Notes: generated from the sequence alone by a model not told the origin. A stretch of 64,000 bases of DNA from Candidatus Rokuibacteriota bacterium (GCA_016193045.1 JACPSW010000059.1:49383-113382), one strand, 5' to 3'. Counted from the first letter of the stretch, positions 11,223 through 32,763 are shown. A program made the numbers and translations.

Positions 11223-11304
11223 TCTCAAGGGTCTGGGCTGAGCAGCCGAGTTCGGCACGACCCAGCGGGGATTGGAGTCCCGCATCGCCATTCGGGGGTG
11301 CGGC

Positions 11305-11577
11305 TCAGTGTGAGAAGCCACCACTCGGCTGCGCGAGCTTCTCTCCCTTTTCCCGGAGATACACGAGGCGCGCCCGACCTCGTTCCGAGAGCCGATAGAC
11401 ATGCTTCCCTCGCTTGCCGCGGCGCAGATCAACGACGCGACTGGCCAGGTTTTGGCGCGCGAGACGGAGCAGACCCATTGCCGCCGCTTGATACCGGACG
11501 CCGAATGCACGAGAGACCTCGTCCGAATCCGCCTGGCCCACTTTCGCGAGATATTCGAGGAGCTCGCGCTTCGTCAT
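11305..11577 (-). CDS. Small hypothetical protein, possibly a winged-helix DNA-binding protein.
   Basis: 90 aa, basic. A helix-turn-helix-like segment (SDEVSRAFGVRYQAAAMGLLRLARQNL) is followed by a predicted beta-hairpin wing (GKHVYRLSERGRARL). There is no firm family assignment. It sits at the edge of the AT-rich region. Confidence 0.35.
   Translation of the reverse strand: MTKRELLEYLAKVGQADSDEVSRAFGVRYQAAAMGLLRLARQNLASRVVDLRRGKRGKHVYRLSERGRARLVYLREKGEKLAQPSGGFSH
11312..11353 (+). terminator. Candidate rho-independent terminator for the + strand peptidase/ATP-grasp operon.
   Basis: A hairpin with a 7-bp perfect stem and 18-nt loop (GAGAAGC...GCTTCTC) is followed by TCCCTTTTCC. It lies 90 nt downstream of the ATP-grasp stop and overlaps the 3' end of the convergent small ORF. 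Confidence 0.25.
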
Positions 11578-12053
11578 ATCTCAGGATGCGGGGGATAGAC
11601 CCGCCCAGATCCCGCCTGAGTCATATCAGATTTTCGGGTTGGCGCGCCCGTGAGCAACGAGGCCCCCGAGCCAGCGGGGGCACGACGTTAGGCGGGAAAA
11701 ATGTACTCGCCGACTTGACGCACTTACACACCTTGACGCTCTTGGAGCCTCCAGATCATCGCTAGGTGTTATGATTACTGTGCCCCGTTGGCTCACATTT
11801 TGCTAAGTGTTTCTCCGAATGCTTTTTCGGGGTTTTCACGAAGAGGAACCGAGGGATCGAATCTAACGACAGACAGATAGAAACTACAGAAAGATAAGAG
11901 CTGCGGAGAACCCCTCCCGAGAAGGGCAAACCCGCCGTGAGGCGGGGGCGCAAAGCCACGGATCAGGCGACAGACCTGACAGCCGGGCTGCCGAAGGAAG
12001 GGTATCTCAACCCCCCCGGGACCGTGGTGGTCCTCCGCGCAAGGGGGACCACG

Positions 12054-13883
12054 ATGGTTGGGGGAAGGGGTTCGAGCGCTCACCGCCTCCTCGTCCTTCT
12101 ACTCGGGGGATTACTCGTCGGGGCGTCGCTGGTTCCCCCCGCCCTGGCGGCGCCACTGCCGGGCTTCCCGCTCCAGTCCTCGCAGGCCTCGCCCGTCACC
12201 GGCGCGGTCACGATCTCTGCCCCCTCCATCCTGCCCGAACCGGGCCTGCTGGGCGTCCAGTTCAAGGTCGACGGTTACGTGCTCGACGCGCTCGACGCGA
12301 CGGCGCCCTTCCAGGTCGTGTGGAGTGCCGCCAGTGCAACCAACGGCGACCATACCATCACGGCGGAGGTCCGGTTGACTTCGGGAATCGTCATCGAGTC
12401 GGCCCCGCTCAGTCTGACGGTCGACAACCCGTCGACCTTCAACCGCACGCTTCACGTCGATGCCACTGCCGGCAACGACGGCAACAATGGCCTGACACCC
12501 GACACGGCGTGGCGGACCCTCGACCGGGCCAACAACGCGGTGGTCGCGGGCGACACCGTGCTGCTATGGGGCACCTTCACTGGTCAGTACATTCGTCCCG
12601 CGATCTCAGGAACCCCCGCCACGCCGATCACCTTCAGGAGCGCTCCCGGACAGACCGCCGTGCTCGACGGTGGTCTCTCGGGCGTCGCGGCGCGGCTCAC
12701 CGCCCGCAGCTACATCGTGGTGGAGCAGCTCCGCATCCAGAACGTTCCCGGCCAGGCCGTCGTGCTGGAAGCCGGCGCCCATCACAACGTCCTGCGTGAC
12801 TTGCTTATCACAGATATTATCAACGGCACGGCGTGGGTCAGCGCCATCCGGATCACTCAGTCCAGCGACAACCTCATCGAGCGCAACACGATCACCAACA
12901 TCGGCAACGCGACGGCCGACCAGGGCGACAGCATGTGGATCGACAACGGATCGAGCCGCAACCGCATCCTCAGCAACACGATGCGGAACGGCAGCCATAG
13001 CCTCATCCTGATCGGCGGCGATTCGCCCGGTGACGCCGAGGTGGGCGACAACGTGGTGGCGGGGAACACGCTCTCGAACCCATGGGGGTCCCATATTGGT
13101 CTCTTGCATATGGCCCGACGAACGCTTATCGAGGGGAACCGCTTGTCCGACGCGAACGTGAACGGGACGAACCGCACGTCCGCCACCATTCAGGTGGTGT
13201 CACGCGATCACATCATCCGCTACAACGAGTTTGTCAACAACGGGGCAATCAATGCGGCTCCGGGTGCGGGCGGAACTCCGGGCATCTCGCTCTTGGCGTA
13301 CACCTATACGGCCGGGGTCGAGCAGGACGCGATCGGCAATCGGATATACCATAACGTCTTCTACGGCAACGGGACCTATGGGCTCTGGATGTCGGAGAAG
13401 GGCGGCCGCCGTGTCACCAACAACGTGATCGAGAACAACATCTTCTTCCGGAATGCCGGGTTCCCCCTCGGCAGCCAGACCTACACGATCGGGATTGAGC
13501 ACTACAGCAACCCGACGGCTTGGCCGGTCGGCAGCCTGAATGGCAACCGCATCCAGAACAACATCCTCCTGCGGCAGCCGGGGTCGGCGGGCGAGCCGAT
13601 GGTGCTGCGGATCCGCAACGCCAGCCAGGGCGGCAACCTGACCTACACGCTCTCGGCCTTCCAGCAGACCTACACGGAAGCGGCCAACAATCTGGAGGCC
13701 GACCCCCTGTTCACCGACGCGGTCAGTGGTGTGTTCACACTGCGAGCCGGTAGCCCCGCGGTCGATGCCGGCCTGATCATTCCCGGGATCGCCTACCTCG
13801 GGGCAGCGCCGGATCTGGGAGCCTACGAGTACGGGGCAGGCGGGCCGACACCCGCGGCCCCTTCAGGGTTAAGCCTCCGGTAA
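12054..13883 (+). CDS. Secreted right-handed parallel beta-helix protein (pectate-lyase fold) with an N-terminal Ig-like domain; paralog 1 of 3.
   Basis: Start chosen at the ATG at 12054 (MVGGRGSSAHRLLVLLLGGLLVGASLVPPALAA, a signal peptide; AAGGGGGA ribosome-binding site). An Ig-like domain is followed by the NRTLHVDATAGNDGNNGLTPDTAWRTLDRAN motif and repeated NxxxN/GxN beta-helix coils. It is paralogous to 55783..57633 and 57646..60018. Confidence 0.8.
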   Translation: MVGGRGSSAHRLLVLLLGGLLVGASLVPPALAAPLPGFPLQSSQASPVTGAVTISAPSILPEPGLLGVQFKVDGYVLDALDATAPFQVVWSAASATNGDHTITAEVRLTSGIVIESAPLSLTVDNPSTFNRTLHVDATAGNDGNNGLTPDTAWRTLDRANNAVVAGDTVLLWGTFTGQYIRPAISGTPATPITFRSAPGQTAVLDGGLSGVAARLTARSYIVVEQLRIQNVPGQAVVLEAGAHHNVLRDLLITDIINGTAWVSAIRITQSSDNLIERNTITNIGNATADQGDSMWIDNGSSRNRILSNTMRNGSHSLILIGGDSPGDAEVGDNVVAGNTLSNPWGSHIGLLHMARRTLIEGNRLSDANVNGTNRTSATIQVVSRDHIIRYNEFVNNGAINAAPGAGGTPGISLLAYTYTAGVEQDAIGNRIYHNVFYGNGTYGLWMSEKGGRRVTNNVIENNIFFRNAGFPLGSQTYTIGIEHYSNPTAWPVGSLNGNRIQNNILLRQPGSAGEPMVLRIRNASQGGNLTYTLSAFQQTYTEAANNLEADPLFTDAVSGVFTLRAGSPAVDAGLIIPGIAYLGAAPDLGAYEYGAGGPTPAAPSGLSLR

Positions 13884-14614: not shown

Positions 14615-15608
14615 ATCCGCTCCTCGTTGCTTCCCTATCCACCGAGTTGAACAGCATGTTCGTAACGCTGCCTCTTATGCCTCCGGCCTTCTGACGGAAC
14701 CACTCGATAGTCCGGCACAGTCCCTCGTCCAGATCGACCGTGGGTTCCCAGCCAAGCAGGGTCCGCGCTCGTGTGATGTCGGGTTGGCGCACCTTCGGAT
14801 CGTCAATGGGGAGCGGTTTGAGGATGATGGAACTCGACGAGTCGCTGAGGGCGAGGATCTTCTTTGCCAGTTCGAGAAGGGTCTTCTCCTCAGGATTCCC
14901 CAGGTTCACGGGTTCGGTGACCGCTGACTGCATGAGCTGCCAGACCCCCGCGACCAGATCGTCAAAGAAGCAGAAGCTCCGTGTTTGAGAGCCATCGCCG
15001 TACACTGTGAGGGGGTCACCGCGGAGCGCCTGGGTGATAAACGTCGGGATGGCCCGGCCGTCGTGAAGCCTCATGCGGGGTCCGTAGGTATTGAAGATCC
15101 GAGCGATCCGGGTATCCAGTCCGTGGAACCGATGGTAGGCCATCGTCATGGCTTCAGCGAAGCGCTTGGCTTCGTCATAGACCCCACGCGGCCCCACGGG
15201 GTTGACGTTCCCCCAGTACTCCTCCCGCTGGGGGTGGACGAGTGGATCGCCGTAGACCTCCGATGTCGAAGCCAGGAGGAACTTGGCTCCCTTCTCCTTG
15301 GCGAGCCCGAGGGCCTTATGGGTGCCGGGCGCCCCCACCTTGAGCGTCTGGATTGGGTGCTGCTGATAGTCGATGGGAGAGGCGGGGCTGGCGAAATGGA
15401 GGACGTAGTCCAGCCGCCCGGCCACGTAGATGTAGTTGGTGACATCGTGCTTGACGAAGGTGAACCGGTGGTCGCGAATGTGAGCGATGTTGTCAATGGT
15501 TCCCGTGAGGAGGTTATCCATGCAGACCACCTCTCCCCCCAGGGCGAGGAGAAACTCGCAGAGGTGGGAGCCGATGAAGCCAGCCCCTCCCGTGATCAGC
15601 ACGCGCAT
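14598..15608 (-). CDS. UDP-glucuronate decarboxylase (UDP-xylose synthase, an extended SDR).
   Basis: Contains [16 protein letters not shown] and the YDEAKR catalytic YxxxK motif. The conservation pattern matches the UXS family. Confidence 0.85.
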
Positions 15609-15615
15609 GGATGAC

Positions 15616-16926
15616 CTATCCAGGGATCACGGGCTTGCGCCCGATGGAGTGATACTCGAAGCCGAGACGCCGCATCCGCTCCGGCTCGTAGAGGTTTCGG
15701 CCGTCGAAGATCACGGGACGGCGCATGAACGATCGGACGCGCTCCAGGTTGAGAAATTTGAATTCATTCCACTCGGTGGTTAGGATGAGGGCGTCTGCCC
15801 CCTCGGCTGCCTCGTACGCCGACATGCAGTAACGGAGGCCCGGAGGAAGGAGGGGCTTGGCGTTCTCAGTCGCCACCGGATCGTAGGCCCTCAGTTCGGC
15901 CCCGTCATCGTGGAGGAGTCGGATCACCTCCGCACTCTTGGCTTGCCGCGTGTCGTCGGTGTTAGGCTTGAAGGCCAACCCCAGCACGCCGATCACCTTC
16001 CCTTCCACCGGCCCCAGCACCTTATGAACCTTCTCGACGAGGACGGCGGCGCGCTCCCGGTTGATCTCCTCAACAGCCTTGAGGAGCTTGAAATCGTAGC
16101 CCAGGGCCGCGGCGGTCTGGATCAAGGAGTCGGTATCCTTTGGAAGGCAGGCGCCCCCGTACCCGAGCCCAGCCTGGAGGAACGTCGTGCCGATCCGCGG
16201 ATCAAGCCCTACGCCCTTGATCACCTGCCCCACGTCGGCGCCGGCCAAGTCACAAATGTTCGCGATGGCGTTGATGAACGAGATCTTGGTAGCGAGAAAT
16301 GCGTTGGAGGCGTACTTGATCATCTCCGCGGAGGGCACATCCGTGATGATCATGGGACGCCCGAGCTGGGCGTAGAGCTCGAGGAGCGTCATGGCGACCT
16401 GCTGAGTCGGCGCCCCGATGACGATCCGGTCGGGGCGGAGAGTGTCCTCGATCGCGGAGCCCTCGCGGAGGAACTCGGGGTTCGAGACGACGTCGAACTC
16501 CACCGGCTTCGGTTGATTGGTCAGGATGATCTCCCGCACCAGCTCACCGGTTCCCACCGGCACCGTGGACTTGTTGACGATGACCTTGTAGCGGTTCAGG
16601 GCCCGCGCGATCCCGCGGGCGACCTCTTCGACCGCCGAGAGGTCCGTCTCCCCGTTAGCCTTGGCCGGCGTGCCGACCGCGATGAAGATGATCTCCGATT
16701 TCCTGACGCCCTCGGCGAGACCGGTCGTGAAGCTGAGGCGGCCGTCGGCGACGTTGCGCGCCACCATCTCCTCCAGCCCGGGCTCGTAGATCGGCATACG
16801 GCCCTGCTTGAGGCCTTCGATCTTCTCGCGCACCTTGTCCACGCAGATGACGTCGTTGCCCAGATCGGCGAAGACCGCTCCGGTCACCAGCCCCACGTAT
16901 CCCGTCCCGACCACGCAGATGTTCAT
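15616..16926 (-). CDS. ugd: UDP-glucose 6-dehydrogenase.
   Basis: Carries the [16 protein letters not shown] Rossmann motif and a central catalytic Cys region (GGACLPKD). At 436 aa it is typical of bacterial Ugd. Confidence 0.85.
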
Positions 16927-19179: not shown

Positions 19180-20336
19180 TGCGAACGGGCGCCTTTGGCC
19201 TGACCGACGCGCTCACAGACGTGCTTCATCTTCGCCTCCCACGTCTCGTCGCGCATGGCGTCACTACGTTGATGGCGCTTCGCAGGGGTGTCGTCGCGCA
19301 ATGCGTGTTCGAGGCTGGCGATGAACTCGTCGTGCCCGTGCGCAACAGAGCAGATGTCGCTGTAATACTTCACTTCCGGCAGGTCTGTCGAGACGACTGG
19401 CAGGCCGGCGCTGAGGTACTCGCGAAGCTTGATCGGATTGACGGCGCGCGAAAGGTCGCTCACGACGAACGGGATGATCCCGACGTCGAAGCCTTTGCAG
19501 TACGCAGGGAGCGTGTCGTAAGGCCGTCGGCCCAGGATGCGGATGTTGGGTAGCTCCCGCACACCGTCCAACGACACGCACACTTCTCCAATGAGGACGA
19601 CTGACCATTCGGGGTGGGTGCGTCCAACCTCCGCAATGAGCTTCAGATCGATCCAGTCGTGGATGAGACCGAAGAACCCGATGACGGGGTGCGGCAGGTG
19701 CCCGATGTCCTCGGGGACGTTCGTCTCCGGGGCGAGCGCCTTCGCGAAATGCTGGTAGTCCACGCCGTGCGACGACAGAAAGGTGTTCGGGTTATATTCC
19801 CTCTTCGACGTGACGAGCGTGTGCGCCGTCGCCAGGCATATGTCGGCTTTCCTCAGCAGGTCGCGCTCCATTGCGGCCATCTTCTCTCCGTCGAGGTACG
19901 AGAAGGCGGACCACTCATCGATGCAGTAGTACACGACGAGCGATTCGTCGAGCTGCCCGACCATGTCCGCGACGTTCGGCAGGAAGGTCCACATCTGGGG
20001 GCGGGCCATGCCGAGCTTGCGCGCCTGGCGCTGGAGGAACCAGCGCAGGAGCCTGCGGTTGACGATCCTCGCGAGGCTGGAGTAGGGCAGCGGGATGACC
20101 ATGGGCTGATACACCCAGGCCCGCGGGCCGACCTGTCGGAGGCCGCCGAGGCACATGCGCAACTTCCGGAGAATCTTCTTCAGGTCGCGGGCTGAAGCGA
20201 GGCTCGGGCTGCGCATCGAGATGGAGTTGACCCAGAGCACCTTGTTGTCGGCCGCGAGATGCTTGAACACGTGGTCGCAGCTTGTCGGATCTCCACCCCA
20301 TTCCTTCGCAAAGTAGATGATCGATTCGCCTTTCAC
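19176..20336 (-). CDS. Glycosyltransferase, GT1/GT4-like (TuaH-type group 1).
   Basis: 386 aa with a GTG start. The C-terminal domain carries the IGFFGLIHDWIDLKLI...EYLSAGLPVVSTDL nucleotide-sugar-binding pattern of group 1 glycosyltransferases. Confidence 0.7.
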   Translation of the reverse strand: MKGESIIYFAKEWGGDPTSCDHVFKHLAADNKVLWVNSISMRSPSLASARDLKKILRKLRMCLGGLRQVGPRAWVYQPMVIPLPYSSLARIVNRRLLRWFLQRQARKLGMARPQMWTFLPNVADMVGQLDESLVVYYCIDEWSAFSYLDGEKMAAMERDLLRKADICLATAHTLVTSKREYNPNTFLSSHGVDYQHFAKALAPETNVPEDIGHLPHPVIGFFGLIHDWIDLKLIAEVGRTHPEWSVVLIGEVCVSLDGVRELPNIRILGRRPYDTLPAYCKGFDVGIIPFVVSDLSRAVNPIKLREYLSAGLPVVSTDLPEVKYYSDICSVAHGHDEFIASLEHALRDDTPAKRHQRSDAMRDETWEAKMKHVCERVGQAKGARSQ

Positions 20337-21358
20337 TCGGATTCCCCTTGTGGCTTGCCGATCCTTACTACGCGCGGGTCAGTTGATCTAATTGGAAGCG
20401 ACGCCCAATGCGCAATCGGTTTCTTCAGGACACAAAAGACCGCAAAGACGAAAAATTCGTCCAGCAGGGGAATTTGGCTCAGGCCCCTCAACCAGTGGCC
20501 GACTCTGAACGCCTTTCCAGAAAATCCGATGCGCTCAAAGTGAACAGTTTCAAATGGTAGAACCTTGAGCATCCGCCGGAATTGACGGATCGTCATGTGG
20601 TTGAGGTACTCCTTCCAATGTTGGTGATCCGTGTAGGGATTCGGGCGACGTTTTCCGGTGTCGGGATCGAACCAATAGTAGGCAGGTGTGTATTCGTCTG
20701 AGGCGTAAAGGTAAGCCGCGGCGTTCAGGAGTGTCTCCATCGAGAAGACCGTATGGAGCCACGGAAGCGGAAGGATGTCCTCAAGGTGTGAACCATACGG
20801 ACCAAGCCAGGGATGAAAGTGGACCAGAAACACACCCCCCGGGCGCAAGAGGCGATAGCACTCCCTGAAAATGTCTTCGGCCCGGCTGAGATGTTCAACG
20901 GTGTCTACGGTGTAGACCACATCGACGGACTCGTTGGGCAGGGGAATGCCCGAGGCCGTGGATTCCACAAAATGGATTCCGTTGCCGTGCTCGGCGCGCC
21001 CACGGGCCAGAGCCGATCTATCAATGTCAATTCCGATTGGCGAAAACTGCTCCTGCTGGCGAAAGGCCTTGAGGAGGTATCCCGTCGAGCATCCGAGCTC
21101 AGCGACCGACTTTCCACTGAACCGGGCGAAACGAGCGAACAGGCCGTAGTATCTCTCGATGTTTGACAAGCGGTCATCCACATGGTTCTGAGCGCTATCG
21201 TATCTCGCTCCCAGTCGGCCGTATCTCAAACCGAACCGTCGGAGTCGTCCGCTAAGAAACACTCGAGCGACGGCCAAACATACCTTCTCCGAAACCCGTG
21301 TGAGCTCTGGCCGCCCATTCAGTGCGACATCCTGCATTTTCGCCTCATGCTGGCCCAC
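20333..21358 (-). CDS. Class I SAM-dependent methyltransferase.
   Basis: SAM-binding motif I (VAELGCSTGYL), motif post-I (IGIDID) and LLRPGGVF are present. Confidence 0.75.
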   Translation of the reverse strand: MGQHEAKMQDVALNGRPELTRVSEKVCLAVARVFLSGRLRRFGLRYGRLGARYDSAQNHVDDRLSNIERYYGLFARFARFSGKSVAELGCSTGYLLKAFRQQEQFSPIGIDIDRSALARGRAEHGNGIHFVESTASGIPLPNESVDVVYTVDTVEHLSRAEDIFRECYRLLRPGGVFLVHFHPWLGPYGSHLEDILPLPWLHTVFSMETLLNAAAYLYASDEYTPAYYWFDPDTGKRRPNPYTDHQHWKEYLNHMTIRQFRRMLKVLPFETVHFERIGFSGKAFRVGHWLRGLSQIPLLDEFFVFAVFCVLKKPIAHWASLPIRSTDPRVVRIGKPQGESE

Positions 21359-21743
21359 GGAACCCTCCGTCAGAAGGTCCTAACAGTCGTTCGAAGGCCC
21401 ACAAGCAAGGTGTGCCGTGAGGAGGGCGGCTGGAGAAGTCCGGGGCGTCATCACGGTTCCCATCGCCGAGCTGGCCGTAGTCGTTCAGCCCCCAGCACCG
21501 CACCGTGGCCTCCTCCAGGAGCGCGCAGGTGTGGAAGGCGCCGGCTTCGACGGCGGTGGCCGTGCTGATTACGGTCGCCGTGAACTGCTGGGTCTGGCCG
21601 ACGGCGATGGTGGGATCCGCCGGCGTGACGCTGATGGCCTGGGCGGCGACCTCATCTGTAGCCAGAGCGAGCACGAGGCTGAAGACGCCGGACAAAACCA
21701 GTGCTCTTGCCTTCCATTGTGGACCACGCCCATGTGGCTTCAT
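21345..21743 (-). pseudogene. Truncated paralog of the RCC1-repeat secreted protein. Only the signal peptide, Ig-like (Big_2) segment and first RCC1 blade survive before the frame diverges.
   Basis: About 300 bp (roughly 21440-21745) are near-identical to the 5' end of the full gene (roughly 24185-24444), including a 53-bp identical run (gccgtgaactgctgggtctggccgacggcgatggtgggatccgccggcgtgac). After about 100 codons the homology ends, and the ORF runs into the start of the methyltransferase gene. Confidence 0.5.
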
Positions 21744-21787
21744 GCGATGAAGGCGCCTCTAGAGCAGCAGCACCGCGGCGACGCCTC

Positions 21788-22885
21788 CTAGCGGACGCGA
21801 TAGACCGCGACAAACAGGCTGTTCAACACGGGAGCGTCGGCCAGCCGGCCCAACACGCCGAAGCTCATGCCAAGCTTGGCGTAAAAGTGTGCCTCGACCA
21901 GAGCCGCGCCCCGCGGAGCCAACTGCCGCGTAAGCTCGCCCAAGGTCGCGACGTTCTTGATGTGAGCAAAGTACGAGGGCCGGCCCGTCAGTCGGAACGT
22001 GAGCTGCTCCACCTTGCGGTAAATCGCCGACTTGTTTGGGAGCGAAACAATCAGGTGCCCGCCCTTGTTAAGCAGGTTCACAACGACATTCAGGCAGTGG
22101 GGCAGATCATCCACGTAATCCAGCACACTCGAACACAAGAGCAGGTCCGCCTTGGCGAGACCCGCGCCCGGCAAGTCCTCCAGCCGGTTGCAGCCAAACC
22201 TCACGTTCAGCACCTTCAACTCCGCCTGTTTCTGCTTGCAAAATTCGATCATCTCCGGGCTGGCGTCGATGCCAACGACCATCTTGTTGAATTTGGCCGC
22301 CGCGAAGCTGAACATCCCGACCCCACAGCCCACATCCAGGACCGAGGCAGCTGGCGAACTGTACTTCTCGATCAGCTTCGTCCAGACCGAGTAGCGCTCG
22401 CGGAAATCGGGGGCCTTTTGGTATTTCGCCGCAAATCCGTGGACGCATCGCGAGTGGAACTCGATGGCGTCTTTGGCCTTCATGCTTCGACTGACGTTCC
22501 CGCACATTGTGGTGTCATCCTGCGAACGGCGGCCCACACCGCTGCATATGAGCGCGACGAGCAGAACGCCAGTGAGGTTGAGGCCGACATCCATCGGCGA
22601 CAGGCTTCGGCCTGGCACCCCGCCCTGGTACCACTCGACGGAGAGCCCCAAGGCGCTGCCGACTGCAAGCACCAGCGCGGCGCGCTGCCGGACCGGCCAC
22701 CGGCGGAAGGCCAAGGTCAGGCACAAGGCGAGGCACGCGAAAAGCGGGATATGCGAGGCATTCCAAGCGAACCGCCAGAACCCCCTGCCCGCCGGTGTCG
22801 CGCCTCCGGGGAGAGACGATACGTAGAAGAGGGCCCCTACGTAAGCCAGGCTCAGAACGGTATAGACGGGAGACAGTCGTTTCAA
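21788..22885 (-). CDS. Fusion protein of a VanZ-like membrane domain (N-terminal) and a class I SAM-dependent methyltransferase (C-terminal).
   Basis: Residues 1-120 form four hydrophobic helices with a VanZ-like signature (VSSLPG...H, SVEWYQ). The C-terminal part has the VLDVGCGVGMFS SAM motif I, GIDAS, and LNKGGHLIV. Confidence 0.7.
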   Translation of the reverse strand: MKRLSPVYTVLSLAYVGALFYVSSLPGGATPAGRGFWRFAWNASHIPLFACLALCLTLAFRRWPVRQRAALVLAVGSALGLSVEWYQGGVPGRSLSPMDVGLNLTGVLLVALICSGVGRRSQDDTTMCGNVSRSMKAKDAIEFHSRCVHGFAAKYQKAPDFRERYSVWTKLIEKYSSPAASVLDVGCGVGMFSFAAAKFNKMVVGIDASPEMIEFCKQKQAELKVLNVRFGCNRLEDLPGAGLAKADLLLCSSVLDYVDDLPHCLNVVVNLLNKGGHLIVSLPNKSAIYRKVEQLTFRLTGRPSYFAHIKNVATLGELTRQLAPRGAALVEAHFYAKLGMSFGVLGRLADAPVLNSLFVAVYRVR

Positions 22886-22997
22886 AACCTGTCAGGCTGT
22901 CACGGCGGCGCTGATGCGTTTGCTGGACCTGCTGCTGATCGAAGAACGACCTGATCCGAACCTCATCACAGGCCCCTCAATGACGGTGGCTAGCTTG

Positions 22998-23026
22998 AAT
23001 CCCCGCAGTTGATCGCCGCGGGGATT
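22998..23026 (-). terminator. Perfect 9-bp stem hairpin immediately downstream of the RCC1 gene; an intra-locus terminator- or attenuator-like element.
   Basis: AATCCCCGC-11 nt loop-GCGGGGATT begins 6 nt after the RCC1 gene stop (23032). No U-tract follows. Confidence 0.25.
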
Positions 23027-23031
23027 GGAGG

Positions 23032-24444
23032 TCACGGTAACACTGTGAGCGTGGTGCTCCCACTCCGGCCGCCGGAGGTCGCGGTGATCGTCGTGAATCC
23101 CGGGAGGAGGCCCGTGGCCAACCCAGTCGCAGTGATCGTGGCGACCGTCTCGTCGTCGCTCGTCCACGTCGCGCCGAGCCCGACCACTGTCACGGGAGTG
23201 AAGGCATCGGTGGTGGCGCCGTTGCCGAGCCGGCCGAACAGGCCCCGCCCCCAGCATTGCACCGTTCCGCCCGGAAGGAGCGCGCAGCCATGCTCGGCGC
23301 CCGATGTGGCGGCGGTGGCGGTAGTGATTCCGGTGACCCCGGCTCCCGGGGTGGCAAAAACGCCTCTCGGGCTCCCGTCGCCGCGCTGGCCGTAGTTGTT
23401 GTCCCCCCAGCATTGCACCCTTCCGTCCCCAAGGAGCACGCAGGTGTGCTCGGCGCCGGGTGCGAGGGCGGCGGGGGTGATGCCGCTGATGGTCACTGGG
23501 GTGGAGGACGAATTGAATGCTGGTGTCTGGCCGAGCTGGCCAAACTCGTTCCAGCCCCAGCATTGCATCGTGCCGTCCTGAAGGAGCGCGCAAGTGTGGA
23601 AGATGCCGGACTTGATGGCGACGTCCGTGGTGATTCCGGTGACCTCCACCGGGATGGGGGTGGGCCTGGGGGCGGGGGGGGCGGGGCGTTGAGTGATCGG
23701 GCTCCCATCGCCGAGCTGGCCGTACTCGTTCCGCCCCCAGCAGCGCACCCTGCCGTCCTGAAGGAGCGCGCAGGTGTGCCACCCGCCGGCGGAGACGGCG
23801 GTGGCCGTGGTGATTCCGAACACTTCCACCGGGGTGGAGTTGGTGAATAGTGGGAATAGCGCGGGTGCAGTGGTCCCGTTGCCAAGCTGGCCGTAGTCGT
23901 TCTGCCCCCAGCACCGCACGGTGCCGTTCTGAAGCAGCGCGCAGGTGTGGTAACCGCCGCCCGTCACGGCCGTGGCAGTGGTCATTCCGGTGACCGGCAC
24001 CGGCGTGGCGGAGAAGAAGGCAGTGGTGGCGGGGTCGCCGAGCTGGCCTTCACTGTTCCGCCCCCAGCATCCGAGCGTGCCGTCGGGAAAGCGCGCGCAG
24101 GTGTGGAAGCCGCCGCCCGTGACCGCCGCGGCGCCCGTGACCCCGGCGACCGCCACCGGGGTGGAGGAATCGGTTCGGGTCCCGTCGCCGAGCTGGCTGT
24201 AGTCGTTCAGCCCCCAGCAGCGCAGCGTGGCATCCTCCAAGAGCGCGCAGGTGTGGAAGGCCCCGGCTTCGACAGCGGAAGCCGTGTCGATTCCGGTCGC
24301 CGTGAACTGCTGGGTCTGGCCGACGGCGATGGTGGGATCCGCCGGCGTGACCGCGATGGTCTGCGCCACGACCTCGTCGGCGGCCAGAAGAGAGACGAGG
24401 CCGAGGACACCTAAGACAAGGACGAGGCTCGCATTTCTCTTCAT
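23032..24444 (-). CDS. Secreted RCC1-repeat (seven-blade beta-propeller) protein flanked by bacterial Ig-like (Big_2) domains.
   Basis: Signal peptide MKRNASLVLVLGVLGLVSLLAA. Seven repeats of the GxHTCALLxDGxxxCWGxNxxGQLGDG consensus follow. Big_2-like segments sit at the N-terminus (IAVTPADPTIAVGQTQQFTATG) and C-terminus. Confidence 0.8.
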   Translation of the reverse strand: MKRNASLVLVLGVLGLVSLLAADEVVAQTIAVTPADPTIAVGQTQQFTATGIDTASAVEAGAFHTCALLEDATLRCWGLNDYSQLGDGTRTDSSTPVAVAGVTGAAAVTGGGFHTCARFPDGTLGCWGRNSEGQLGDPATTAFFSATPVPVTGMTTATAVTGGGYHTCALLQNGTVRCWGQNDYGQLGNGTTAPALFPLFTNSTPVEVFGITTATAVSAGGWHTCALLQDGRVRCWGRNEYGQLGDGSPITQRPAPPAPRPTPIPVEVTGITTDVAIKSGIFHTCALLQDGTMQCWGWNEFGQLGQTPAFNSSSTPVTISGITPAALAPGAEHTCVLLGDGRVQCWGDNNYGQRGDGSPRGVFATPGAGVTGITTATAATSGAEHGCALLPGGTVQCWGRGLFGRLGNGATTDAFTPVTVVGLGATWTSDDETVATITATGLATGLLPGFTTITATSGGRSGSTTLTVLP

Positions 24445-24802
24445 CTCGTACCCTCCGCTCTACTTCTCTTTCGTAATCCACTCACCTTTTCGGGAGCCAC
24501 GCTCCACGATCAGTGCCGTCATCCTGACGCCATCCTAGAATCTCGAGCGGGGAAGGACAATCAGGTGGAAACCCGCATCAACCATGGGGGAATCCCCGAA
24601 CAGGTGGGGGAGGCGGCCTACAGTCGAGGCGTGCGGTTTGCGGTTCGATTTTGTAGCCAGTCAGGCTATGAGAGTTGATGCGATCGAGTCACGCTCGCTG
24701 CAGAGCGACCGATCGCTGTCTCGGGACCGAGAGACGAAGACCCTGTGGGGTGCCCGCCCTCCGTCAGTACCGCCCGGGGGCGGGCACCCCATCAATTGGC
24801 CT

Positions 24803-26452
24803 TCAGCCCAGCTTCTGGAACGCGTCGGCGGCGCGGAGCACCGTACCATCCTCCCAATGACGTCCAATCAGCATCATGCCGACTGGGAGTCCCGCGGACA
24901 TGCCGGCCGGGACGGTAGCTGCGGGATGGCCGGTCACGTCGAAGGGGGCGGTGTTGGCGATCATCTCGAGGGCCCGCGCCACGTACTCCTCGCGGCTGGC
25001 GTTGGGCGCGGGGAGCAGAGTAGCCTTCAGCGGCAGCGTCGGCATCAGGAGCAGATCCACGTTCTTCAGGGCCTCGTCGTAGGCGGCCCGGAGCACGCGG
25101 GCCAGGTTCTGGGCCTTGGCGTAGTAGCGGCCCTGGTAGTTGTCCTGCATGTACTGGCCGAGCAGGATGACCAGCTTGACGGTCTCCGACAGGTCATTGG
25201 CGCGCGCCCGTCGGCTCCGGCCGTAGAAGTCCAGCAGCGAGGTGGTATAGTGGCCCTTCCAGTTCGTCCCCATGCTGTTGCCGGCGACCATCAGCATAGT
25301 CGCGCCCTCGACGGCGATCGCATTCCAGATGTCGAGGCCGTCACGGTGGAGCGGGATGGACACCTCGCTCACGGAGGCCCCGGCCCCTGTCAAGCGCTGC
25401 CCGGCCTGGCGCACCATGTCATCCACGTCCCGCTCGGAGTTAGGCCAGGCGAACCCCTCCTTCACGATCCCGATGCGCAGGCCCCGGGCGTCTCCGGTGA
25501 GCCGCTTCGTGTACGCATCCGTGCGGAGCCCGGCTGGCTGGCGTGGGTCGAGGCCGTCGGGCCCGGCGATCACCTCCAGGAGCAGGGCGCAGTCAGCGGC
25601 GCTGCGGGCGATGGGGCCGGTGTGATCCAGCGTGAGCTCGATCGGGAAGACACCCGTGTAGGGCACCAGACCATAGGTCGGCTTGTGGCCGACGGCGCCG
25701 CAGAATGAACTCGGGATCCGGATCGATCCGCCCTGATCGCCGCCCATGGCCATGTCGCACTCGCGGGCTACCACCAGGGCCGCGCTACCGCTGGAGGAGC
25801 CGCCGGCCGATCGCTTCGGGTCGTGGGGGTTGAGGACGGGTCCCGTATCCGAGGTGTGGCTGCCGCCCGAGAAGCAAAGGTGCTCGCAGACCGACTTGCC
25901 AATGATCTCCCCGCCCGCGTCCAGAATGCGGGTCACGATGGTCGCGTCGACGTCGGGCACATAGCCTTCGAGGACGTTGGAACCGTTCATCATCGGGATC
26001 CCGGCGACGCAGACGTTGTCCTTGATCGCGATCTTCTTGCCGGCGAGCAGCCCGGAGGGCGCACCCTTGATCGAGGACTTCCAGTACCACGCGTTGAGCC
26101 GATTCTCAGAGGCGGGCGGACGGTGTCCCGCGTCCCGCGGGTACTTCACCGGCAGCGTGGGCTCCGCGAACTGGTCGAGGCGGCGGTACGAGGCGAGCAC
26201 CCCGTCCATAAGATTACGGAACGACGCGAGGTCCTCACGGCTCAGGTCCAGGCCGTAGGACCTGGCAATGCGCTCCAACTCGCCTAGCGGCGGCTTGCGC
26301 AGGATCCGCGGGGCGGTCGCGGCTGGTGGCGGGGCCTGCACCTCTGCGGCCCCGGCCTGGCTAGGCCTTGTCGGAGTGACGAGGGTCGCCGCCATGGCGG
26401 CCGCGCTCGTACGGAGAAACTGGCGACGCGAATGTTTCGGCGAACCTAGCAT
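24803..26452 (-). CDS. Amidase-signature-family amidase, TAT-exported.
   Basis: Start at MLGSPKHSRRQFLRTSAAAMAATLV (twin-arginine motif; GAGGAGG ribosome-binding site). The amidase-signature core (GGSSSGSAALVA) and Ser-cisSer-Lys triad region are present. Confidence 0.85.
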   Translation of the reverse strand: MLGSPKHSRRQFLRTSAAAMAATLVTPTRPSQAGAAEVQAPPPAATAPRILRKPPLGELERIARSYGLDLSREDLASFRNLMDGVLASYRRLDQFAEPTLPVKYPRDAGHRPPASENRLNAWYWKSSIKGAPSGLLAGKKIAIKDNVCVAGIPMMNGSNVLEGYVPDVDATIVTRILDAGGEIIGKSVCEHLCFSGGSHTSDTGPVLNPHDPKRSAGGSSSGSAALVVARECDMAMGGDQGGSIRIPSSFCGAVGHKPTYGLVPYTGVFPIELTLDHTGPIARSAADCALLLEVIAGPDGLDPRQPAGLRTDAYTKRLTGDARGLRIGIVKEGFAWPNSERDVDDMVRQAGQRLTGAGASVSEVSIPLHRDGLDIWNAIAVEGATMLMVAGNSMGTNWKGHYTTSLLDFYGRSRRARANDLSETVKLVILLGQYMQDNYQGRYYAKAQNLARVLRAAYDEALKNVDLLLMPTLPLKATLLPAPNASREEYVARALEMIANTAPFDVTGHPAATVPAGMSAGLPVGMMLIGRHWEDGTVLRAADAFQKLG

Positions 26453-26575
26453 CGCACATCCTCCTCTTGACCGGCGGGTTGTGAAACCAATCACCAGGAA
26501 AGCGTCGCCCCACGGTCTGCCGCTTCGTCTGGAAACATGACCGGGCGCCACTTCCCGTCAACACACATTCCTAAT

Positions 26576-29089
26576 TCATCGCGCAACCGCGCTAGATGGT
26601 GGGAAATCTGGGAGAAGGTCACCTGCGCTCGTCTCACCCGCCAAATCATGGACTCCACTGCGCAGCTTCCTGAATACGGCAAAAGCCAGCGCGTACAAAC
26701 CCAGTGCGACCAGGATAGCGACGTTCAAACCGAACGCTATGCTGATTGGCACGCTCAGTAGACCACCAACGACGGTAAACAAGCCGTTCATCCCCCACGC
26801 CCAAGCGATTGCACCACGAGGCTGGTTTGCGATCGCTAGAATGCCCAGAGGGAACGGCATACCGAGGAGAAACCCTACAGGAAATATCATAACCCCCGAC
26901 GCGAGGATTCTACCGGTAAGAGGCAATCCGAGAACCAGACCGGATAGCCATGGATAGAGTATCACAAACGCAAGACCCACGGCGAGGACTCCCAGGAACG
27001 GTATCGCCCATCTGCGCCGACATTCAATCCCCAACATCTCCGACGACCCGCTGCCGATTCCCGCTGCAAGCAGCAATGTGAATATGACCGTCGAATACGT
27101 GTGCAGTGGGCTGCCGATCAGTTGCATGAATTTTTGTATGAAGACGAGCTCAAGAATAATGAACCCCGCACCCAGGCAAGAAAAGTACAAGAGCAACGGT
27201 ACAGCGCTCGTCCCCCTTTCTCTGCCAATCTTCGAGAATCGCAGAGGAACCAGAACAAACAGCAATACAAATACAGCAGAAGCGAATCCGGTAAAGAATA
27301 AGTGCACCCAATCCATCGGAATGACGCCTTTGATGAGTGATTGGTTCAGAACAGCTGCAGTCCCCACATCCAGATAGTTCCTTGCATCCGGGTCCAAGCG
27401 CTCGATCGTCTTTCGAAGCAATCCAAAATAGGGTCTGTCGTCCGTGCGCGGCGTGACGTGAACGGCCATCCGGTCGGCCAGCTCATCGGGAAAACCCCCG
27501 GAATAAAACTCCTGCGACAGGAACCTCTCCTTCGGCTCCAGCGGATTCTCAACAAGACTCAGACGATGGTCTTCATCAGCCTCAGGCGGCGCCAGGAACT
27601 TGTTCAGCGACGCAATTTCCGCGGCTGTCCATGGCTGATTCTTTACCAGCAGAGTGGGCAGCAGAGGTTCCAGTGGGTAGGCATAGACAGCAACGTGGCG
27701 TGCAAAATCGGTTCGTCCCATGCGCTTCCACGCCAGCGCAGCGGTCGTAATCATTCTCGGATATGCATAGTGATTAATGTGCAGTATGCCATTGGCGGTC
27801 AGCCGCGAGAAATACTCCTGATAAGCCTCGGCAGTCTGCAGATACACCGGCGCTAGGGCGCCCGTGCCCTGCGCAACGCTCGAGCTTGTGTGATTGCTAT
27901 AGATCTGAATGACGTCGTACTTGCGGTCGCTGTGGCGTAAGAAGCTTCGACCTTCACCAGCCTGAACGCGCACAGCCGGGTTGTGAAATATGTGGCCGAT
28001 ATACTTCGAGTACCGACCGGTCGCGAGTTCGACTACGGTCGGCACCAGCTCTACAGCATCGATATAGGTCGCACCGTACATCAGGGCGGCTTTTGTTTCC
28101 TGGCCGCCTGCGCTCCCAATTACCAAGACCCTGTGCCCCGCATCGCGTTTCAGGTAGTGCGACGCCAAAACGCCGATCTGCCAGAAGTGCTCAGTAATAC
28201 GGGATTTGTCGTGCTCGATATGTTCCCGAAGAGACTTCAGATCGCCGTCAAACTTATAGAAGTAACTCGTCTGATTACCGCCGTCGTACTGAATGGCCTT
28301 TCGATCACCGTACCGATGCCATGGCGTGGATATTTCAGGTGACCACGTTTCATCGATCACCTCGATCTTTGATATCGGATCCCAGCGAACGAGCTCGCGC
28401 CTGCCTTTTTCGACGGCGTCCTTCACCCTCCCCTGCTTGTCCATGTGCTGCACAAAGTCAATATAGTCTGGTGCTTTGACCATTGGCAGGGCGACGGCCA
28501 GGACCGCTAGAACACCAGCAGCGCGACTGCGGAATCGCGACTCTGTAAACAACGCCGCCGCCAGGAGTCCCAGTCCCGCCGCACACACAATAAGGCCGCC
28601 AGGGCCGAGTGTTGATATGAATGGAACGACGATCACACTCCCCAAGCCCGCGCCGATCAGATCCCAGAAATACAATCTTTGAATCCTCAGCGCATATTTT
28701 GAGAACGTTGCAATGAGTACGTAACCGGCCAGAAAGAATGGAAGAAGCAGAGCCACGTACAGAAGGGCGAACGATGCCACGGTGATGAACGGACGTCGGA
28801 CGATGCTCGTGTAGTCAAGCGGCAAGACGTTGATCAGTGGGATCACCAACGCAGTCGTCGCCGCAAATCCAACGCTTCCTGTAAAAAGAATCTCACTGAT
28901 CTCTCGATCTACCGGAATCGGGCGCAGGGTCGCCCACACTCCAGCCAGACCAAAGGCGAATACGGCGACTGTTACGACGAAATAGGCGATGTTAGGGGCC
29001 AGCATCACGTCAAACACACGCGTAAGCATGAGCTCAAGCACCAGCGTCGCAAGAGCAATCAACAGGATTCCGCACGAAAGCCTGCGCAT
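26576..29089 (-). CDS. Large polytopic membrane protein with a central spermidine/spermine-synthase-like (aminopropyltransferase-fold) domain.
   Basis: 837 aa. An N-terminal block of about 7 transmembrane helices is followed by a soluble domain with VLVIGSAGGQETKAALMYGATYIDAVELVP...DVIQIY (a SpeE-like class I methyltransferase fold), then a second multi-helix membrane block. Its GC content is markedly lower than that of its neighbours. Confidence 0.65.
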   Translation of the reverse strand: MRRLSCGILLIALATLVLELMLTRVFDVMLAPNIAYFVVTVAVFAFGLAGVWATLRPIPVDREISEILFTGSVGFAATTALVIPLINVLPLDYTSIVRRPFITVASFALLYVALLLPFFLAGYVLIATFSKYALRIQRLYFWDLIGAGLGSVIVVPFISTLGPGGLIVCAAGLGLLAAALFTESRFRSRAAGVLAVLAVALPMVKAPDYIDFVQHMDKQGRVKDAVEKGRRELVRWDPISKIEVIDETWSPEISTPWHRYGDRKAIQYDGGNQTSYFYKFDGDLKSLREHIEHDKSRITEHFWQIGVLASHYLKRDAGHRVLVIGSAGGQETKAALMYGATYIDAVELVPTVVELATGRYSKYIGHIFHNPAVRVQAGEGRSFLRHSDRKYDVIQIYSNHTSSSVAQGTGALAPVYLQTAEAYQEYFSRLTANGILHINHYAYPRMITTAALAWKRMGRTDFARHVAVYAYPLEPLLPTLLVKNQPWTAAEIASLNKFLAPPEADEDHRLSLVENPLEPKERFLSQEFYSGGFPDELADRMAVHVTPRTDDRPYFGLLRKTIERLDPDARNYLDVGTAAVLNQSLIKGVIPMDWVHLFFTGFASAVFVLLFVLVPLRFSKIGRERGTSAVPLLLYFSCLGAGFIILELVFIQKFMQLIGSPLHTYSTVIFTLLLAAGIGSGSSEMLGIECRRRWAIPFLGVLAVGLAFVILYPWLSGLVLGLPLTGRILASGVMIFPVGFLLGMPFPLGILAIANQPRGAIAWAWGMNGLFTVVGGLLSVPISIAFGLNVAILVALGLYALAFAVFRKLRSGVHDLAGETSAGDLLPDFPPSSAVAR

Positions 29090-31141: not shown

Positions 31142-32062
31142 TCATCGCCGAGCCCCCGAATCGGCGGAGGCGGCGTGGCGCACGTCCGGGCGGTCGCGGA
31201 CGGCCAGCATGGCTGCGACGAGCCGAATGAGATCGCGGTGATGCAGGAGGGGATCGTGGCCCACCCGGGCCCGAAACAGGAAGTTCCCCGGGCTGGTCTC
31301 CTCGGCGGGCACGCCGGCCGGAATGTCCAGGGGAATACCCCCCGCGCCGTCCAGCACCGCGCTCCGCTCCGGCGCGATCCACCGGTCGGGCTCGATCCGG
31401 ACGGTCAGGTAGAGGATGCTGCGGCGGCTGTCGGGCGGGACGCGCGGGCCCCCGGGTCGGTCGCTCCCGAGGCCGTGCGGTGTCTCGTCGACCCACGCCC
31501 CGTCGGCGCCGTTGAGGGCCACCTGCAGGGGGTGCGTCTGGGCGCTGGTCGCGAAGGCCGGGCACATCTCTCGCGCAGCCTCATGGGTGAAGCGGCAGAG
31601 CGCGTTGGTGCCGTGGTTGGCTCCGACAAGGCTGACCCACGTGCGCACGACCTCGGGATGAAGCTTGGCGGCGTACCACCGGCTGCTCACCGCCCCCATG
31701 CTGTGCGACACGATGTCGAGCCGTTGGGGCATTTCGCCCCGGTATCCGCCACCCTGGGCGGCGGCGTTCGCCCTGACGAGGAGCGCTGCCGCCGCCGGCG
31801 CGATCACCGAGGTCGCCGCCGGGATGTTGGCCATGGTGTTCGGGACAATGTCCACGGCGTGCAGGTATTCGCTCGGGTACCCGATGCCGACCAGATACCT
31901 GATGAGAGGTCGCCAGTCGGCCGAGGACAGCCCGTGACCGTGGACGAAAAGCACCGGCGTCCGCGCATAGTCGGCGGTCTCCGAGCGAACTGCCGAGCAT
32001 CCCGACGCGAGCCCGAGCAGCAGCGACATCGCCCACAGTCGCAAGGGCCGGCAGCGTTGCAT
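31142..32062 (-). CDS. Lipoprotein lipase/esterase of the alpha/beta-hydrolase fold (triacylglycerol-lipase-like).
   Basis: Start at MQRCRPLRLWAMSLLLGLASGC (lipobox L-A-S-G-C). Motifs include PVLFVHGHG, the nucleophile elbow HSMG, and VGANHGT. The start codon overlaps the upstream acyltransferase stop. Confidence 0.7.
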   Translation of the reverse strand: MQRCRPLRLWAMSLLLGLASGCSAVRSETADYARTPVLFVHGHGLSSADWRPLIRYLVGIGYPSEYLHAVDIVPNTMANIPAATSVIAPAAAALLVRANAAAQGGGYRGEMPQRLDIVSHSMGAVSSRWYAAKLHPEVVRTWVSLVGANHGTNALCRFTHEAAREMCPAFATSAQTHPLQVALNGADGAWVDETPHGLGSDRPGGPRVPPDSRRSILYLTVRIEPDRWIAPERSAVLDGAGGIPLDIPAGVPAEETSPGNFLFRARVGHDPLLHHRDLIRLVAAMLAVRDRPDVRHAASADSGARR

Positions 32063-32763
32063 CACATGGCACTCACGTGAAACGCATCGACGTTGCCCGT
32101 CGCCCCAGGCGCGCCGCGCCGGCGCAATGGTCGTGCCGGGTTGCCGACCACGATCGTGAACTCGGGCACCGGCTTGTTGACGACGGCACCCGCGCCGACG
32201 AGAGCGCCGCGACCCACGTCCTCCATCACCACGCAGTGGGCGCCGATCCAGCAGTCGTCGCCGATCGCGATGCGCTTCTTGCGGCCTCGCTGCAGGGCCA
32301 TCGGGATGTCGGTCCGGTCGATGTTGTGTTGCCGCGACCCGCTCAACAGCACCGAGTGCTCGCCCACGAGCGCGTAGTTGCCGAAGTCGCAGTGATGGAT
32401 GACGCAATACCGGTTGATGGTCACGTTGTCCCCGATGGAGACGTCGTGGTAGATGAAGACGGCACCGAGCTCGATGAGGACGTTCCGGCCACAGCGCGTG
32501 AGCGCGAAGCGATAGAACTCGGCGCGTACCACGACGCCGAAGACGTAGGGGATCAGGCTGAGAAGCTCGGAGACGGTGCGGAAGACGATGTCCGGGGGGA
32601 AGACCAGGTCCGCGGCCCGGCAGAGCATGGCGAGCGGCCACACGAAGGGCCAGGTCAAGGCCCCCACGACCGCGCGGGCGATGGTGAGCCACCGAGGTGG
32701 TCGAAACTGCAAGTAGTCGACGTCCGTGTATCGTCCGTGCTCGATTCGCGCCTCTCTTTGCAT
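32062..32763 (-). CDS. Hexapeptide-repeat (left-handed beta-helix) acyltransferase, of the WcaF / colanic-acid acetyltransferase type.
   Basis: The N-terminus is hydrophobic. Tandem [LIV]GxxxxI hexapeptide repeats are present (IGDNVTINRYCVI, IGDDCWIGAHCVV, VGAGAVVNKPV). Confidence 0.75.
   Translation of the reverse strand: MQREARIEHGRYTDVDYLQFRPPRWLTIARAVVGALTWPFVWPLAMLCRAADLVFPPDIVFRTVSELLSLIPYVFGVVVRAEFYRFALTRCGRNVLIELGAVFIYHDVSIGDNVTINRYCVIHHCDFGNYALVGEHSVLLSGSRQHNIDRTDIPMALQRGRKKRIAIGDDCWIGAHCVVMEDVGRGALVGAGAVVNKPVPEFTIVVGNPARPLRRRGAPGATGNVDAFHVSAM

Follow-up and report, generated by a model that had tools for sequence, protein, structure and literature searches.

The window analysed here, a 64-kb stretch of DNA (64,000 nucleotides, nt) within a 144-kb contig of a Candidatus Rokubacteria metagenome-assembled genome, carries an intact RCC1/Big_2 gene and a short open reading frame (ORF) that repeats its 5′ end, the two copies lying in direct orientation and 2.7 kb apart. 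Most likely this fragment ORF (21345-21743) has no function and is what remains of a second RCC1/Big_2 gene, a paralogue of the first. Its 5′ third would come from a lineage that had already split off from the resident RCC1 gene when this organism and the closest relative sampled went separate ways. Gene conversion from the intact gene would later have overwritten the remainder, at least once and at a very recent date, leaving a 58-nt tract of perfect identity. Past codon 97 the frame would then cross 55 nt of unrelated sequence and the leader of a downstream methyltransferase gene (MT2), ending at the first stop, which falls in the MT2 ribosome-binding site. Operon transcription probably includes the segment, and a low level of translation may occur; the product would be unable to form either parental domain and would have no role of its own. 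The features on which this reading is built are as follows.

21345..21743, minus strand: fragment ORF, 132 codons; GenBank MBI3029532.1, 'hypothetical protein HYY64_08485', a singleton cluster; fragment-specific sequences are FTATVISTATAVEAGAFHTCALLEEATVR in the ORF and DDAPDFSSRPPHGTPCLWAFER, the ORF tail
21630..21722, minus strand: fragment codons 8-38, signal-peptide part; 57% identical to the RCC1 gene of the window and 60% to that of the orthologous locus L004
21572..21629, minus strand: 58 nt matching 24294-24351 without a difference; interpreted as a tract of recent gene conversion
21453..21571, minus strand: fragment codons 58-97, three strands of the first blade; codons 59-97 are 88% identical to the neighbouring gene and 86% to L004
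21398..21452, minus strand: 3′ junction of the insert, 55 nt, translated in the ORF tail and outside the RCC1 homology
21345..21397, minus strand: native MT2 5′ leader, also conserved in L004; the fragment ORF continues through it
23032..24444, minus strand: intact RCC1/Big_2 gene, 470 amino acids (aa); GenBank MBI3029534.1, 'Ig-like domain-containing protein'
24175..24444, minus strand: codons 1-90 of the intact gene, which align with the fragment; 58-nt run at 24294-24351

Extent and mosaic structure of the fragment

The two copies resemble each other far beyond chance. A repeat search paired 21454-21689 with 24176-24411 at 86% identity over 236 nt, with a 156-nt core at 92%, and when aligned without gaps in codon register the blocks 21453-21722 and 24175-24444 are identical at 215 of 270 nt. 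The longest identical run (58 nt, 21572-21629 = 24294-24351) has two matches in the window and none in 100 shuffles. At the protein level 60 of 73 residues are identical (E 3e-38). The fragment is 92% identical to the first RCC1 repeat of the intact gene and 62-74% identical to the other six internal repeats, and since the first repeat matches best, the fragment is a copy of the 5′ end specifically and not of any blade. An earlier note on this DNA had placed both ORFs at these positions on the minus strand and had read their likeness as duplication at the DNA level, and both statements hold. Its figure of 53 bp for the identical run was too short, and the signal peptides that it called near-identical share 57% of their nucleotides over codons 8-38.

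Homology to the intact gene stops after codon 97, so that about 90 codons are homologous, compared with 415-811 aa in the 25-30 relatives aligned. They cover the signal peptide, the first third of the Big_2 immunoglobulin (Ig)-like domain and the first propeller blade up to its third strand; the note had credited the fragment with this blade as a whole, which holds for three strands but not for the fourth. The Big_2 match covers profile positions 2-28 only and scores 18.0 bits against a cut-off of 22.8, short of a complete domain. A single RCC1_2 unit is recognised (residues 63-91) and the WD40_RLD model scores 35 bits against a cut-off of 150, so the predicted product lacks the full repeat set needed to close a propeller. 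In the model of the full-length protein, residues 93-98 make up the fourth strand of the first blade and residues 426-469 hold the partner strands of the Ig domain, both past the point at which the fragment breaks off. The codon aligned with the parental ATG is CCA in the fragment, and the ATG of the ORF itself lies at the insertion junction.

Divergence from the intact gene is distributed very unevenly along the homologous part. For orthologue comparison we used one distinct locus, L004, which has been sampled twice (L009 is 99.93% identical to L004). Over codons 8-38 (93 nt), the RCC1 genes of the window and of L004 are 87% identical to each other, and 31 of the 93 sites are changed in the fragment alone. 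Over codons 39-58 (60 nt) the fragment is 98.3% identical to the window gene and 81.7% to the L004 gene, the latter two being 83.3% identical; ten sites, synonymous ones among them, join the fragment with the window gene and none joins it with L004. Because the orthologue differs at these 10 sites, some of them synonymous, the identical tract points to recent copying rather than to selection. Over codons 59-97 (117 nt) the fragment is 88% identical to the window gene and 86% to L004, with 81% between these two, and the informative sites are divided between 11 shared with the window gene, nine shared with L004, three or four found in the fragment only and two that differ three ways. The maximal chi-square breakpoint falls at about 21630 (chi2 44.8), a value reached in none of 2000 permutations.

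The same partition is seen in the proteins. In the signal-peptide part, other members of the family (61-67% identity) are closer to the fragment than its neighbour is, while over codons 39-97 the neighbour stands at 84% and any other family member at 77% or less. In the 5′ third, the divergence between fragment and neighbour, two copies within one genome, exceeds that between neighbour and orthologue across organisms. A stretch of 39 nt at the end of the signal peptide is 87% identical to a paralogue in another Rokubacteria locus, L002; among the 133 family proteins compared, none matched the signal-peptide part at more than 67%. As judged from these alignments, the fragment is a three-part mosaic and not a simple duplicate of the neighbouring gene, and an older or separate paralogue as its origin, with partial overwriting by gene conversion from the neighbour, would fit the pattern.

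Insertion site between two methyltransferase genes

L004 is collinear with the window at 83-88% DNA identity and has the gene order 843-aa membrane protein, RCC1 (472 aa), MT1 (232 aa) and MT2. The corresponding features of the window, between the intact gene and MT2, are listed here.

22484..22885, minus strand: VanZ-like segment, 134 codons, in the window only; fused in frame to MT1 with no stop between
21788..22483, minus strand: MT1, ancestral class I S-adenosylmethionine-dependent methyltransferase, 232 aa in the orthologue; it has an RCC1 copy on either side
21744..21787, minus strand: native spacer after MT1; the first ~22 nt past the MT1 stop are clearly homologous to the L004 spacer beside an element resembling a miniature inverted-repeat transposable element (MITE)
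20333..21337, minus strand: MT2, second methyltransferase, likely true start ATG 21337

Homology to the L004 spacer is found on both sides of the fragment, with the downstream part resuming at 21397, 60 nt before the MT2 start, and the fragment is accordingly placed as an insert of about 345 nt in the native MT1-MT2 spacer. Neither the 55-nt 3′ junction nor the 5′ junction sequence has a match in the window or in any fetched locus. The only orthologous locus found, represented by L004 and L009, does not contain the fragment ORF. No indexed contig matched exactly the RCC1 protein of the window, the fragment or the 308-aa GenBank methyltransferase. A metagenome scan with MT2 returned L009, with no new arrangement, and two 54% matches (L010 and L011), which have neither RCC1 nor MT1 nearby. 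One further candidate for comparison, L008, which carries a 51% homologue of MT1, turned out to be an unrelated polysaccharide locus and was set aside.

The last 35 codons of the fragment are made up of unrelated sequence and the MT2 leader. By our own calculation about 0.4 of random 35-codon stretches at the same base composition are free of stops, so that the open tail is unremarkable. The stop codon TGA (21345-21347) overlaps the GAGG Shine-Dalgarno site of MT2 and lies 7 nt before the ATG at 21337. This start (MQDV...) matches that of the L004 protein (MDVE...) and stands behind the GAGG site; the longest-ORF start of MT2 would be a GTG at 21358. The overlap between fragment and methyltransferase start that the note had described exists only for the GTG and disappears with the ATG favoured by the orthologue and the ribosome-binding site. 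For the fragment ATG itself, the nearest AGAGG is 12 nt upstream, a poor spacing. No promoter-like or terminator-like site was found between MT1, the fragment and MT2, and the fragment is therefore probably transcribed with the operon. Rfam and tRNA scans of the window from 20 to 25 kb gave no match.

The VanZ-like segment is a separate matter. It passes the Pfam VanZ threshold (32.9 bits against 30.1) and that of NCBIfam vanZ_1 (27.2 bits against 20) through the C-terminal half of the profile only, and it forms a clean insertion of about 480 nt between the RCC1 3′ flank and the MT1 start. L004 lacks the segment, and so do the MT1 homologues found elsewhere (206-253 aa). Logan contigs give an identical 365-aa product for the ORF 21788-22885; the GenBank product has 308 aa and starts inside the VanZ-like segment. 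From this comparison the VanZ-methyltransferase is, by its sequence, a separate lineage-specific fusion, and should be annotated as such. A scan of genome contigs with it gave as its sole match an unrelated Aminipila methyltransferase at 22% identity. The proposal that the duplication spanned the VanZ-methyltransferase gene does not survive this result: the VanZ-like segment is an insertion fused to an ancestral MT1 that already lay between RCC1 and MT2.

Seen against L004, the window contains four extra segments.

31169-32088, minus strand: about 920 nt, Lipase_2 / alpha-beta-hydrolase-like gene
24574-26595: amidase with a twin-arginine translocation (TAT) signal
22482-22999: VanZ-like segment fused to MT1
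21397-21788: segment containing the RCC1 fragment

The lipase-like gene is carried by three other related loci (L001, L002 and L014), and its absence from L004 is therefore attributed to loss, which means that L004 is not a pure ancestral reference. L004 also contains, at 8118-8337 and 10690-10910 and equally in L009, two palindromic MITE-like elements of about 215 nt that are 94% identical. Their ends read CTAGCCCGCAnTATTCACGAA and they are flanked by CTAG, one flank including the MT1 stop codon. The two copies bracket the RCC1-MT1 pair and sit at the spacers where the window has the amidase and the RCC1 fragment; no copy was found in the window.

Alternative readings of the fragment

Chimeric joins in metagenome assemblies often sit at repeats, and the repeat could in principle be an artefact of the assembly of this metagenome-assembled genome. 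Logan contigs from two independent SRA runs were aligned to the window. Two of them (L006 and L007) span window positions 23660/23633 to 21600 at 99.85-99.95% identity and two others (L012 and L013) span 21601/21564 to 17333 at 99.93-100%, so that both unique junctions of the fragment are recovered by four contigs from the two runs at 99.85-100% identity. Three of the four contigs end 30 nt into the 58-nt identical run, as is usual for a de Bruijn assembler at a repeat. The fragment also has 55 differences from the intact gene over 270 positions. We exclude an assembly artefact as the source of the arrangement and leave it a negligible probability.

Among the biological alternatives, a functional exported mini-protein of about 100 aa, made up of the signal peptide, the Big_2/RCC1 piece and a novel tail and acting as a binding module or as a leader ORF translationally coupled to the downstream methyltransferase, is improbable. 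The frame is open, begins with an ATG and a signal-peptide-like N-terminus, ends with a stop codon that overlaps the Shine-Dalgarno site of MT2 and is annotated as a protein in GenBank, all of which would suit such a product. Yet it forms a singleton cluster, and among the matches listed, all of 231 aa or less and consisting of the fragment itself and partial RCC1 proteins, there is no related 132-aa protein and no homologue of the whole ORF. The orthologous locus does without it: the methyltransferase there stands behind a GAGG of its own, with no ORF upstream. The mini-protein would hold a third of an Ig domain and three blade strands that have their partner strands at a distance of 330-370 residues in the parent; two residues invariant in the family differ, the AGAGG is poorly spaced and the tail is the 5′ leader of a neighbouring gene. 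Of the two possibilities that the earlier note had put forward, the decaying duplicate is retained, refined to a gene-converted mosaic remnant, and the expressed secreted mini-protein is given up. The simplest form of duplication, a single recent partial copy of the neighbouring RCC1 gene with no second source and with all differences due to drift, is disfavoured and about as improbable as the mini-protein. The direct orientation, the short distance and the neighbour's lead over codons 39-97 speak for it, but it does not fit because identity is not uniform across the segments (57/98/88%, a contrast matched in 0 of 2000 permutations). Between the 5′ third and the neighbour the divergence far exceeds that between the neighbour and its orthologue; the copy would thus predate the split, yet the orthologous locus is without the fragment.

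Silent-cassette systems such as pilE/pilS of Neisseria, vlsE of Borrelia and msp2 of Anaplasma change a surface protein by gene conversion, and the fragment resembles them as a promoter-less partial copy near a surface-protein gene with evident sequence exchange. A perfect 58-nt tract within about 177 nt at 91.5% identity, in direct orientation, makes plain that exchange between the copies has occurred. Even so, we regard it as very improbable that the fragment is a silent partial cassette exchanging by gene conversion, or a direct repeat serving to delete RCC1-VanZ-MT1, which would imply population-level variation of the exported propeller protein. Where such systems have several partial donor copies with variable segments, there is one partial copy in 64 kb, and the shared tract is the most conserved, N-terminal part of the family and not a variable region. 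The intact gene shows no excess divergence from its orthologue there (83% in the tract against 81-87% in the flanks), and the fragment is not conserved in the relative L004. The bolder version, in which the fragment is kept as a promoter-less partner so that conversion, or RecA-dependent deletion of RCC1, VanZ and MT1, would yield propeller and glycan variants, is equally far-fetched; if true, an uncultivated phylum would have a simple switch for variation.

Several observations also weigh against the remnant reading, which we prefer. The ORF is intact: it starts with an ATG, its signal peptide is plausible and ends in AQA, and the homologous part contains neither a frameshift nor an internal stop. 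The final stop, 7 nt ahead of the MT2 ATG, gives a layout compatible with translational coupling. Over codons 59-97 the fragment has three or four lineage-specific changes (plus the two three-way sites) against nine in the intact gene, fewer than a freely drifting pseudogene predicts, a difference that is not significant (binomial p ~0.13 by our own estimate). The fragment-specific changes are three synonymous and three non-synonymous, too few on so short a branch for a test of selection. On the other side, two of the 13 family-invariant positions that the fragment covers are changed, G51V (codon 58) and D71E (codon 78), which is at most a weak suggestion of relaxed constraint. The fragment could have been lost in L004 rather than never having been there, since L004 has already lost at least the lipase-like gene and one locus was compared. 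Finally, the donor paralogue was not found in a homologue search in which the matches listed were all of 231 aa or less, so that a full-length donor could not show.

As a remnant, the fragment finds its closest parallel in truncated paralogues homogenised by gene conversion. Like them it is partial, lineage-specific and mosaic, contains a perfectly identical tract, reads into unrelated sequence and is annotated only as hypothetical; unlike them it has an ORF that is still open and a signal peptide that is kept, and the source of its 5′ third was not located. MBI3029532.1 is thus best treated as a gene remnant and not as a small secreted protein. The fragment would be the kind of debris that genome rearrangement ordinarily leaves, here in a Rokubacteria envelope-glycan locus that is conserved and otherwise interesting, and it documents both gene conversion and repeated insertion into the few spacers that this tightly packed operon has.

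The intact RCC1/Big_2 protein and its locus

The intact gene is organised as follows.

24280..24360, minus strand: N-terminal third of Big_2, residues 29-55, profile 3-27; 19.8 bits alone
23176..24279, minus strand: seven-bladed RCC1-like propeller, residues ~56-423, between Big_2 profile positions ~27 and ~37
23035..23175, minus strand: C-terminal two-thirds of the same Big_2, residues 424-470, profile 37-79; 39.7 bits alone

Seven tandem RCC1 repeats pass Pfam thresholds in the intact protein (RCC1_2, seven stretches, 229 bits; RCC1, 172.7 bits), Big_2 is also matched, and the RCC1-like domain (RLD) model WD40_RLD scores 275.5 bits against its cut-off of 150. An AlphaFold2 model built with 30 relatives has a predicted local distance difference test score (pLDDT) of 89.5 and a predicted template modelling (TM) score of 0.84, and its best Foldseek match is UVR8 (E 4e-34, target TM 0.87, root-mean-square deviation ~2.1 Å, 28% identity); the propeller also superposes on RCC1 and on the HERC2 RLDs. 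The model therefore predicts a closed seven-bladed beta-propeller. When the N-terminal 30 aa of the mature protein and the C-terminal 47 aa are joined, they give one Big_2 match over profile positions 3-79 of 79 at 56.8 bits, which indicates a single Big_2 domain with the propeller inserted in one of its loops. The note's count of seven blades is upheld; its two Big_2 domains are the halves of one. Residues 31-50 are modelled with a pLDDT of 94-95, on which basis the two halves would pack physically against each other, and the motif FTATG[propeller]TWTSSD is common to all 25-30 relatives aligned. An N-terminal hydrophobic, signal-like helix suggests a Sec-type exported protein. The seven repeats (window 23217-24335, minus strand) are 60-78% identical to one another in DNA, with periods of 150-180 nt and of 306 nt across one missed copy, and the propeller looks like a fairly recent amplification. 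In the spacer, about 300 nt before the RCC1 start codon, lies an adjacent GC-rich palindrome of 23+23 nt with 83% complementarity (24746-24791).

With RCC1, UVR8 and the HERC2 RLDs (Pfam PF00415, PF13540 and PF25390) the intact protein shares its seven RCC1 repeats and the superposable model; it differs in being bacterial, in having a signal peptide and in nesting its propeller in Big_2, and a connection with Ran, chromatin or UV-B sensing is not to be expected. A more distant match is beta-lactamase inhibitor protein II (BLIP-II), a seven-bladed RCC1-like propeller that Streptomyces secretes and that works by binding to protein (PDB 1jtd and 3qhy); it matches the model in Foldseek with E ~4e-16 and a query TM of only 0.41-0.44. 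BLIP-II has shorter blades (~270 aa in total), no Ig-like domain and another genomic context. A literature search found nothing on Rokubacteria RCC1 proteins or on RCC1 combined with Big_2. A family with its propeller nested in a single Big_2 domain may be of interest to specialists.

All genes of the window from ~13.9 to 40 kb are on the minus strand and mostly abut. Their products include a UDP-glucose dehydrogenase, epimerases, a GT1-type glycosyltransferase, the two methyltransferases and an 837-aa membrane protein, together with a GMC oxidoreductase, a lipase-like protein, a hexapeptide transferase, a GNAT protein, an AMP-binding enzyme, a PMT_2 membrane glycosyltransferase and a polysaccharide deacetylase. 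The same gene set accompanies RCC1/Big_2 homologues, 66-86% identical, in four other Rokubacteria loci, counted as L004 (= L009), L001 (GCA_040961615.1), L002 and L014 (= L015; GCA_003220655.1). By this comparison the RCC1/Big_2 gene is a regular member of a conserved Rokubacteria envelope-glycan locus, where the earlier note had considered RCC1 propellers rare in such surroundings. In L002 there are three tandem RCC1/Big_2 paralogues (10022-11461, 11520-12959 and 15372-16814), two of which form the N-terminal portion of much longer proteins (1245 aa and 985+ aa), and this arrangement shows that the family expands locally. As a constant companion of the PMT_2, AMP-binding, GNAT, hexapeptide-transferase and deacetylase genes, the RCC1 gene offers a starting point for asking what exported bacterial RCC1 propellers do.

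The neighbours of the RCC1 gene include the amidase noted above, a protein of 582 aa with a twin-arginine signal (24803-26551, minus strand; NCBIfam PRK07235, 790 bits). It sits between RCC1 and the 837-aa membrane protein, has no counterpart in L004, L001, L002 or L014, and looks like a lineage-specific insertion. The 837-aa multi-pass membrane protein (26576-29089, minus strand) contains only a weak spermidine-synthase-like segment in its centre, and a search for its family gave no assignment. It is 84% identical to its homologue in L002, where that lies in the same locus, and is collinear with the 843-aa homologue that adjoins RCC1 in L004. A c-di-GMP-I-GGC riboswitch aptamer (RF03167) is recognised at 11916-11996 on the plus strand, with 70.5 bits against a gathering threshold of 59 and E 1e-14. 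It stands at the 5′ edge of a 648-aa beta-helix/Big_7 ORF (11937-13883), and its position suggests cyclic di-GMP control of a probably exported beta-helix/Big_7 protein beside the glycan locus.

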